Assembly (NCBI RefSeq): GCF_013122565.1
Contig: NZ_CP053258.1
DNA length: 64,000 bases
Direction: 5' to 3' (one strand)
Source of the DNA: Escherichia coli
Lineage (GTDB): Bacteria > Pseudomonadota > Gammaproteobacteria > Enterobacterales > Enterobacteriaceae
Every line of letters starts with the position of its first letter. Within the stretch, counting starts at the first letter, position 1. The translations under genes and the position numbers were made by a program. The notes under the pieces were generated by a model that saw nothing but the letters and a program-made list of their open reading frames with translations, did no database searches and was not told the origin of the DNA. Below are positions 25,118 to 25,171 of this stretch, piece by piece.

Positions 25118-25171
25118 ACTGCCCCCTTAGTGCGGGGGCAGGATAGCAGAAAATTGGTGAGCAGTGCGGCC

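Follow-up and report, generated by a model that had tools for sequence, protein, structure and literature searches.

A hairpin overlapping the trmL promoter and ribosome-binding site covaries across Enterobacterales and is a candidate read-through-specific insulator

The insertion sequence IS10 of Tn10 is said to protect its transposase gene from outside transcription by fold-back inhibition, and IS50 of Tn5 reportedly has a similar arrangement. There, an inverted repeat spans the gene's own start. Native transcripts lack the 5' arm and can be translated, and transcripts that arrive from outside fold and sequester the ribosome-binding site (RBS). We find the same kind of layout, with a deduced start and a calculated accessibility, directly upstream of trmL in a stretch of 64,000 nucleotides of Escherichia coli DNA (RefSeq assembly GCF_013122565.1, contig NZ_CP053258.1), which we call the window and whose positions we use throughout. 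In contrast to the transposase genes, trmL is a conserved housekeeping gene for tRNA modification, and its 5' arm is formed by the end of the promoter's -10 element together with the discriminator. Furthermore, the trmL hairpin goes together with Rho sensitivity and with a mapped 3' end of RNA, and the trmL case is known from sequence, calculation and the literature. We lean slightly towards the reading that this hairpin, split by the gene's own promoter, is an insulator that acts on read-through RNA specifically and leaves the native mRNA open.

Hairpins that sequester a Shine-Dalgarno (SD) sequence form a second group of relatives, of which the MS2 coat gene is reportedly an example. Like them, the trmL hairpin is a stable local stem that holds the SD sequence, and thermodynamics predict strong inhibition. 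The classical stem, however, is present on the functional mRNA, whereas the main trmL transcript appears to start in the loop. A third relative is the extended -10 promoter with a GC-rich discriminator, of the ribosomal RNA (rRNA) or stringent type, for example rrnB P1. The trmL promoter shares with it TGn and TAnnnT, the lack of a conserved -35 element and a GC(G/C)CCC discriminator; trmL is also a gene of the translation apparatus, with an mRNA that behaves like those of ribosomal-protein genes. This is a likeness of sequence rather than of response to guanosine tetraphosphate (ppGpp) and DksA, and the trmL discriminator differs in doubling as an arm of an RNA hairpin.

At the left end of IS200, too, impinging transcription is blocked by a structure, and a stem-loop sequesters the SD sequence of the downstream gene (PMC4513863). 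IS200 uses two separate inverted repeats for this, a bidirectional Rho-independent terminator and a 5' untranslated region (UTR) stem on the native mRNA, whereas at trmL one hairpin would do both jobs and would be absent from the native mRNA. In addition, hairpins are described at the 3' ends that processing leaves on transcripts terminated by Rho (Adams et al. 2021, PMC7815308, which cites Dar and Sorek 2018). The trmL hairpin resembles these in its GC-rich stem without a U-tract, in the 3' end a few nucleotides downstream and in the significant Rho score in K-12. They normally lie in 3' UTRs, whereas the trmL hairpin overlaps the promoter, RBS and start codon of the next gene. With intrinsic terminators it shares an 8-bp G/C stem, a 7-nt loop and a position downstream of a gene, but the U-tract is absent in E. 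coli and in 50 of the 57 species compared below.

In the trmL sense, the sequence reads ...UUUUCUGCUAUC-CUGCCCCC-GCACUAA-GGGGGCAG-U-AUG. The stem is perfect over 8 bp (seven G-C and one U-A), the loop has 7 nt, and a single U (25118) separates the 3' arm from the AUG at 25117-25115. The final loop bases UAA open the SD sequence UAAGGGGG, whose duplex with the 3' end of 16S rRNA is predicted at -11 kcal/mol. As a 26-nt RNA, the hairpin has a folding energy of -18.1 kcal/mol, and this fold makes up 98% of the ensemble; its dinucleotide shuffles average -8.4 +/- 2.3 kcal/mol (z = -4.2), and none of 200 is as good. The stem is retained when folded in contexts of 61, 101 and 236 nt. The initial annotation had described a hairpin just 5' of the trmL AUG, with GGGGG in its 3' arm as the sole SD-like element. 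We confirm this hairpin, which ends 1 nt before the AUG. The suggested folding-energy calculation gives a very stable stem, and no purine-rich element that could serve as an alternative SD sequence was found upstream of the AUG outside the hairpin. By itself the hairpin is not unusual, since perfect GC-rich 8-bp hairpins are common in the window (16, vs 1.5 in shuffles). What distinguishes it is its position and its conservation.

As DNA, the 5' arm comprises the last two bases of a -10 hexamer and the next six, a GC-rich discriminator (GCCCCC, GCGCCCC in relatives). Conservation of TGn with TAnnnT is the signature of an extended -10 promoter and of its sigma-70 contacts. Among 53 distinct homologous sequences T-12, A-11 and T-7 are invariant and the mid-hexamer positions vary freely, and TG stands at -15/-14 in 52 of 57 loci. 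The loci without the T of this TG mostly carry near-consensus hexamers (TATAAT in Hafnia, TATACT in two Edwardsiella species), and the aligned Hafnia hexamer is called as the -10 of a sigma-70 promoter by a generic scan. In the window, the same generic two-hexamer promoter and terminator scan calls neither a promoter at trmL nor the hairpin, because it requires a -35 hexamer and a U-tract.

A start 7 nt past the hexamer would land on G 25133, the base that opens the loop. Adams et al. (2021, PMC7815308) cloned what they call the 'entire 5' UTR' of K-12 trmL and its open reading frame (ORF) with a primer starting GCACUAAGGGGGCAG, which is the first loop nucleotide. The gene-specific part of this forward primer is GCACTAAGGGGGCAG, and the 5' UTR begins at K-12 position 3781199, taken as its start on the basis of differential RNA sequencing (dRNA-seq) and equivalent to 25133 (PMC7815308). 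The published start thus coincides with the base predicted from the hexamer spacing. Together, the cloning primer and the promoter geometry point to trmL transcription starting at or near G 25133. The yibK (trmL) mRNA has been described as transcriptionally independent, and in a 6S-RNA mutant it declines along with the mRNAs of ribosomal-protein genes. In vitro, genomic SELEX (systematic evolution of ligands by exponential enrichment) detects binding of RNA polymerase holoenzymes to the lldD-yibK spacer. Queries with trmL, yibK or the coordinates gave no match in the Cappable-seq, Salmonella ppGpp transcriptome, ROSE, Shigella M90T and Kim 2012 supplements. A search of main texts for the coordinates returned unrelated papers only, and a literature search for trmL with ppGpp or discriminator found nothing specific.

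Without the 5' arm, a native mRNA begun at the first loop base cannot form the stem. The calculated cost of opening the region from SD sequence to AUG is approximately 3-6 kcal/mol for transcripts from 25133 or 25131, and 16-19 kcal/mol for RNA whose 5' end lies upstream, at 25160 or 25290. On such read-through RNA, GGGGG is unpaired with a calculated probability of about 1e-4. Since 16-19 kcal/mol exceeds the 11 kcal/mol gained by the SD duplex, whereas 3-6 kcal/mol does not, sequestration is predicted on read-through RNA only. The proposal of the initial annotation that structure limits trmL initiation is thus partly right. Thermodynamic sequestration stands for RNA that carries both arms, but the proposal presumed both arms on the trmL mRNA, and the main trmL mRNA, with its start in the loop and its extended -10 element overlapping the stem, apparently lacks the 5' one. 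Most likely, SD sequestration does not concern normal trmL expression and is limited to RNA that reads through from the upstream gene.

We scanned for TrmL in one genome per species and obtained 80 loci. In 57 of them, all from Enterobacterales (Enterobacteriaceae, Erwiniaceae, Yersiniaceae, Hafniaceae, Budviciaceae and others), the 30-40 nt 5' of the ATG share one layout: an A/T-rich stretch, TGnTAnnnT, directly adjoining it a GC-rich hairpin (-9 to -24.5 kcal/mol), 0-7 nt and the ATG. The hexamer lies 22-29 nt from the ATG in these loci, and the end of the stem falls between -1 and +7 nt from the ATG, which makes RBS overlap a conserved feature. A U-tract is not conserved (at least five T in 8 nt in just 7 of the 57 homologues). 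The other 23 loci, from Pasteurellaceae, Xenorhabdus, Moellerella, Rheinheimera and Marinobacter, have neither TGnTAnnnT nor a comparable hairpin, and their trmL usually follows another RNA-modification gene, such as rsmD or mnmA, by 5-21 nt. In Pasteurellaceae, where trmL comes after rsmD (8-9 nt) or mnmA (~20 nt) and both the extended -10 motif and the hairpin are missing, this suggests expression of trmL from an operon.

The arms differ between taxa and remain complementary: CUGCCCCC/GGGGGCAG in E. coli, GCGCCCCC/GGGGGCGC in Edwardsiella, GGCUCUCG/CGGGAGCC in Tatumella, GCGUCCC/GGGACGC in Rahnella and GCGGCCC/GGGCCGC in Pantoea. For a covariation alignment, we placed the 5' positions by their distance from the hexamer and mirrored the 3' positions gap-free from the innermost pair, with N as padding. 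Pairing holds in 80.7% of the cells of this alignment, and both sides have changed in 8 of 12 pairs (52 cells). Its covariation score of 0.252 is reached by none of 500 shuffles, which give 0.102 +/- 0.011, and controls slid by 1-3 columns give at most 0.14; a separate count of double changes agrees. Combining arms from different species costs 2.7 kcal/mol of stability relative to the native pairs (0 of 2000 permutations). Compensatory changes extend beyond the CCCC/GGGG core, with GC in 28 and CG in 21 sequences at p3, and CG in 37, GC in 11 and UA in 1 at p4. The outer pairs switch as well (CUG/CAG, GCG/CGC, GCGU/ACGC, GCGG/CCGC). RNAalifold on a plain MAFFT alignment gives no consensus structure, because variable loops shift the 3' arms out of register. 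On these sequence comparisons, the base pairing of the stem appears to be under selection.

Within E. coli, 5420 of 5426 complete genomes contain exactly one match to a 61-nt query with the hairpin at its centre, 5342 of them at 99% identity or more, and in the one variant of this block that we inspected the differences are confined to the coding region. A 271-nt query across the lldD-trmL spacer matches 5420 of the 5426 as well. The spacer itself, in which the hairpin sits, measures 154 nt in the window and 47, 72, 154, 185 or 197 nt among strains. All variants merge at approximately 25150, just 5' of the trmL -10 element, and are identical from there through the hairpin into trmL. An extended -10 promoter leaves the sequence upstream of about -20 free to vary in this way.

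The upstream gene is co-directional in nearly all of the 57 loci, and its stop codon lies 35-90 nt from the trmL ATG in most. The hairpin is frequently the sole structure in between. The upstream gene is cpxA in ~30 species, lldD in ~15, a PcaK-like MFS transporter gene in 5, and others in the rest; the block of promoter and hairpin has stayed with trmL while this gene was replaced at least twice. We notice that, leaving aside the Escherichia, Enterobacter and Citrobacter groups, most Enterobacterales have cpxA, which encodes an envelope-stress sensor kinase, directly upstream of trmL, and that cysE is convergent downstream of trmL in nearly all cpxA-trmL loci. The likely ancestral order is cpxR-cpxA-trmL facing cysE, with lldD or an MFS transporter gene later taking the place of cpxA in some genera.

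In K-12, where the trmL ATG is at 3781215 and the block matches the window exactly, Term-seq places an RNA 3' end at 3781218, with 1467 reads and an intrinsic-terminator score of 1.92 (cut-off 3) (Adams et al. 2021, PMC7815308). This end has a significant Rho score of 3.68, the measure of increased read-through under bicyclomycin, and is flagged as lying within a Rho-termination region, and a Rho-termination peak with a score of 8.4 lies inside trmL at 3781497 (PMC7815308). The trmL fusion of the same study, which starts in the loop, shows no Rho effect (1.0-1.4-fold), and its authors call this unexplained (PMC7815308).

We propose, as the most parsimonious model, that these features belong to one mechanism. 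RNA polymerase would recognize the extended -10 (TGcTATCCT), whose end forms the 5' arm with the discriminator, and start near G 25133, producing a native trmL mRNA with a 16-nt leader, no 5' arm and a free SD sequence. The full hairpin would form only on RNA begun upstream, from lldPRD here and from cpxRA or other operons in relatives. On that RNA, the SD sequence would be buried, the stem would abut the AUG and trmL would go untranslated; the untranslated stretch would be exposed to Rho termination, and 3' exonucleases would trim back to the hairpin, which then becomes the 3' end of the upstream mRNA. We infer that read-through RNA would be translationally silent, that Rho would act on it owing to this silence and that insulation would be the selected function of the hairpin. 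As a net result, trmL, and possibly convergent cysE too, would be insulated from the regulation of the upstream operon. Under the insulator model, the Adams fusion would show no Rho effect because, lacking the 5' arm, it was translated. The picture taken whole, a transposon-style fold-back insulator on a housekeeping gene that covaries across Enterobacterales, with the discriminator as its 5' arm and an RBS masked only on RNA of the upstream operon, which is handed to Rho before it runs antisense into cysE, is offered tentatively, as falling somewhat short of an even chance.

Several observations weigh against the insulator reading. The covariation alignment uses the minimum-energy hairpin of each individual sequence as its anchor and the sequences are related, and a C-rich discriminator opposite a G-rich SD sequence alone yields 69% pairing in shuffles. 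In Photorhabdus, the hairpin is strong (-17.8 kcal/mol) despite a divergent upstream gene, relB. Adams et al. filtered out 3' ends with a start site 20 nt or less upstream, yet 3781218, which is 19 nt past the deduced start, was retained (PMC7815308). K-12 also has a separate primary lldD 3' end, 48 nt past the lldD stop (PMC7815308). Finally, the start-site, 3'-end and Rho data come from K-12, which is identical to the window strain in the 91-nt block and differs in the spacer. We also considered whether hairpin strength tracks the orientation of the upstream gene and rejected this: two Yersinia species with a divergent upstream ada have the weakest stems (-9.4 kcal/mol), which together with Photorhabdus makes a mixed picture in a sample too small to decide.

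An unlikely alternative to the insulator is that the hairpin simply terminates transcription of the upstream gene, which was cpxA ancestrally and is lldD in the window, or stabilises the 3' end of that gene's RNA, the overlap with RBS and promoter being a by-product of the very short spacer and of no consequence for trmL translation. It is the first and often the sole stable structure past the upstream stop, the Term-seq 3' end lies 5 nt past the stem, and the Serratia homologue carries UUUUU 3' of the stem and is called terminator-like by the scan. In E. coli, the stem-loop is of the right size for an intrinsic terminator (5-12 bp, loop of 3-8 nt), but the U-tract 3' of the stem is missing, as in most of the species, and the tail reads UAUGCUAA. 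The sub-threshold intrinsic-terminator score, the persistence of the element with trmL through the replacements of its upstream gene and the primary 3' end of K-12 lldD farther upstream also speak against this explanation. It overlaps the insulator model, from which it differs solely in whether RBS masking matters.

More doubtful is an arrangement in which the main start lies upstream and the functional trmL mRNA carries both arms, so that the hairpin limits or conditionally gates initiation. The stem is very stable and holds the only SD sequence, RBS overlap is what the species conserve, and the 3' end that survived the 20-nt filter leaves room for another start site. The conserved TGnTAnnnT, however, adjoins and overlaps the 5' arm, and any start from it therefore falls inside the hairpin; the published 5' UTR indeed begins in the loop. 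A cost of 16-19 kcal/mol set against a gain of 11 would nearly abolish translation of a housekeeping enzyme. Furthermore, some E. coli have just 47 nt between lldD and trmL, and the sequence 5' of the block is not conserved.

Two further explanations we regard as very improbable. One takes the 5' end at the first loop base as an RNase product, cleavage in the single-stranded, A/U-containing 7-nt loop of read-through RNA removing the 5' arm and activating trmL translation, but an end exactly 7 nt past a hexamer with invariant sigma-70 contacts would be an unlikely coincidence, RNA polymerase binds the spacer in vitro, and Adams et al. let the 5' UTR begin there. The other, to which we give equally little credence, holds the pairing to be functionless, a C-rich discriminator suited to stringent-type promoter kinetics happening to face a G-rich SD sequence; both are expected here and their composition alone pairs well in shuffles, but the double compensatory changes outside the core, the switching outer pairs, the covariation score beyond all shuffles and slid controls, and the lower stability of chimeric arms argue against it.

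Other roles for the hairpin were considered and rejected. A perfect 8-bp stem at this stability is far too stable for an RNA thermometer of the ROSE, fourU or rpoH type. An Rfam scan of 24400-25600 at a permissive E-value gave no match on the hairpin, with only chance-level microRNA-model matches on the adjoining long palindrome. A terminator for antisense RNA coming from cysE is rejected, as the plus-strand sequence 3' of the hairpin is A-rich and not U-rich. A leader ORF or translational coupling across the hairpin is rejected too; by eye, no start codon or frame is conserved between the 47-nt and 154-nt spacers.

The positions of the features are collected in the table. On the plus strand, the window carries gpsA (22662-23681) and cysE (23761-24582), and trmL, lldD and lldR lie on the minus strand, according to the ORF list and the RefSeq annotation of matching genomes.

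Table. Features of the trmL upstream region and its neighbours, in window positions.
Feature	Position	Strand	Basis or remark
5' arm CUGCCCCC (mRNA sense)	25134..25141	-	As DNA, last 2 nt of the -10 hexamer and 6-nt GC-rich discriminator GCCCCC; fold; aligned position in 57 species
Loop GCACUAA	25127..25133	-	Fold; first base G 25133 (K-12 3781199) is the deduced trmL transcription start
3' arm GGGGGCAG	25119..25126	-	Contains the Shine-Dalgarno core GGGGG
Shine-Dalgarno sequence UAAGGGGG	25122..25129	-	3 loop bases and 5 bases of the 3' arm; 4 nt 5' of the AUG
Extended -10 element TGC-TATCCT, TGCTATCCT	25140..25148	-	TG at -15/-14, hexamer -12 to -7; no -35 element
Block near-invariant in E. 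coli	25060..25150	-	A/T-rich stretch, extended -10, hairpin and first codons; strain-variable spacer starts upstream of it
RNA 3' end by Term-seq, equivalent position	25114	-	K-12 3781218, C of AUGC; 5 nt past the last paired base; mapped from PMC7815308
trmL start codon AUG	25115..25117	-	ORF 24644-25117; RefSeq annotation
trmL coding sequence	24644..25117	-	157 aa, tRNA Cm34/Um34 2'-O-methyltransferase; ORF and RefSeq annotation
lldD	25272..26462	-	Co-directional gene upstream of trmL; its read-through RNA would carry both hairpin arms

Several side observations concern the lldD-trmL spacer. The differences in its length come from the presence, absence or rearrangement of GC-rich repeats, and the last codons of lldD vary too (GCG GCA TAG vs GCA GCT TAA). 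At 25165-25265, the window has a long GC-rich imperfect palindrome with its core at 25197-25231. In K-12, 'HPGQ' G-quadruplex/hairpin repeats of the same kind are described between lldD and trmL (PMC5100583). In the window strain, the centre of the palindrome is a perfect palindrome of 35 bp, CTGTCTCTTGATCAGATCTCCTGATCAAGAGACAG. Its first 19 nt equal what we take to be the inside end of IS50/Tn5. Elsewhere, annotated transposase genes of the IS4/Tn5 family have ends that match CTGTCTCTTGATCAGATCTCCTGATCAAGAGACAG, and the spacer variant that contains this palindrome occurs, unannotated, in ~791 of 5426 E. coli genomes. It may be the footprint or a miniature remnant of an IS4-family element. Two neighbouring perfect 8-bp GC-rich hairpins at 37098-37142 (arms GGGTGAGG and CCCTCTCC) resemble the repeats of the spacer and are probably a further copy of them.

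The convergent spacer between trmL and cysE (24583-24643) contains a hairpin that resembles repetitive extragenic palindromic (REP) elements, GCCGGAU...AUCCGGC, at about -26 kcal/mol and without a U-tract, and it gives a weak Rfam match to naRNA4 on the plus strand (E = 2.1). In K-12, both strands of trmL have internal Rho-termination regions, as reported by Adams et al. (2021, PMC7815308). Another perfect 8-bp hairpin, CCGGCCCG-cgcagaa-CGGGCCGG, lies at 23711-23733 (+) between the gpsA stop and the cysE start. At the equivalent K-12 position, 3782582 (-), Term-seq finds a 3' end with ~46,900 reads of the class 'orphan' (Adams et al. 2021, PMC7815308). This hairpin is probably the gpsA terminator or an element of the cysE 5' UTR.

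Most likely, the trmL arrangement is of the known fold-back kind in an unusual, housekeeping setting, with a function that we infer. One 23-nt element would be promoter discriminator, SD sequence, RBS mask and anchor of an RNA 3' end, conserved over a long evolutionary span. As one stretch of DNA yields a site that is open on the native transcript and closed on read-through RNA, predictions of RBS accessibility made without the transcription start can have the wrong sign. The insulator reading also offers a testable explanation for the puzzle in the data of Adams et al. (2021), a significant Rho score next to a fusion without a Rho effect. The arrangement bears on how operons are annotated where intergenic regions are compact, and on how synthetic insulators are designed. 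If the arrangement is general, start sites within RBS-masking hairpins could be a common and unrecognised form of insulation between adjacent units that have no intrinsic terminator. For Enterobacterales, our findings suggest that the level of a tRNA wobble methylase is kept deliberately independent of the envelope-stress (cpxRA) or lactate (lldPRD) operon that lies upstream.

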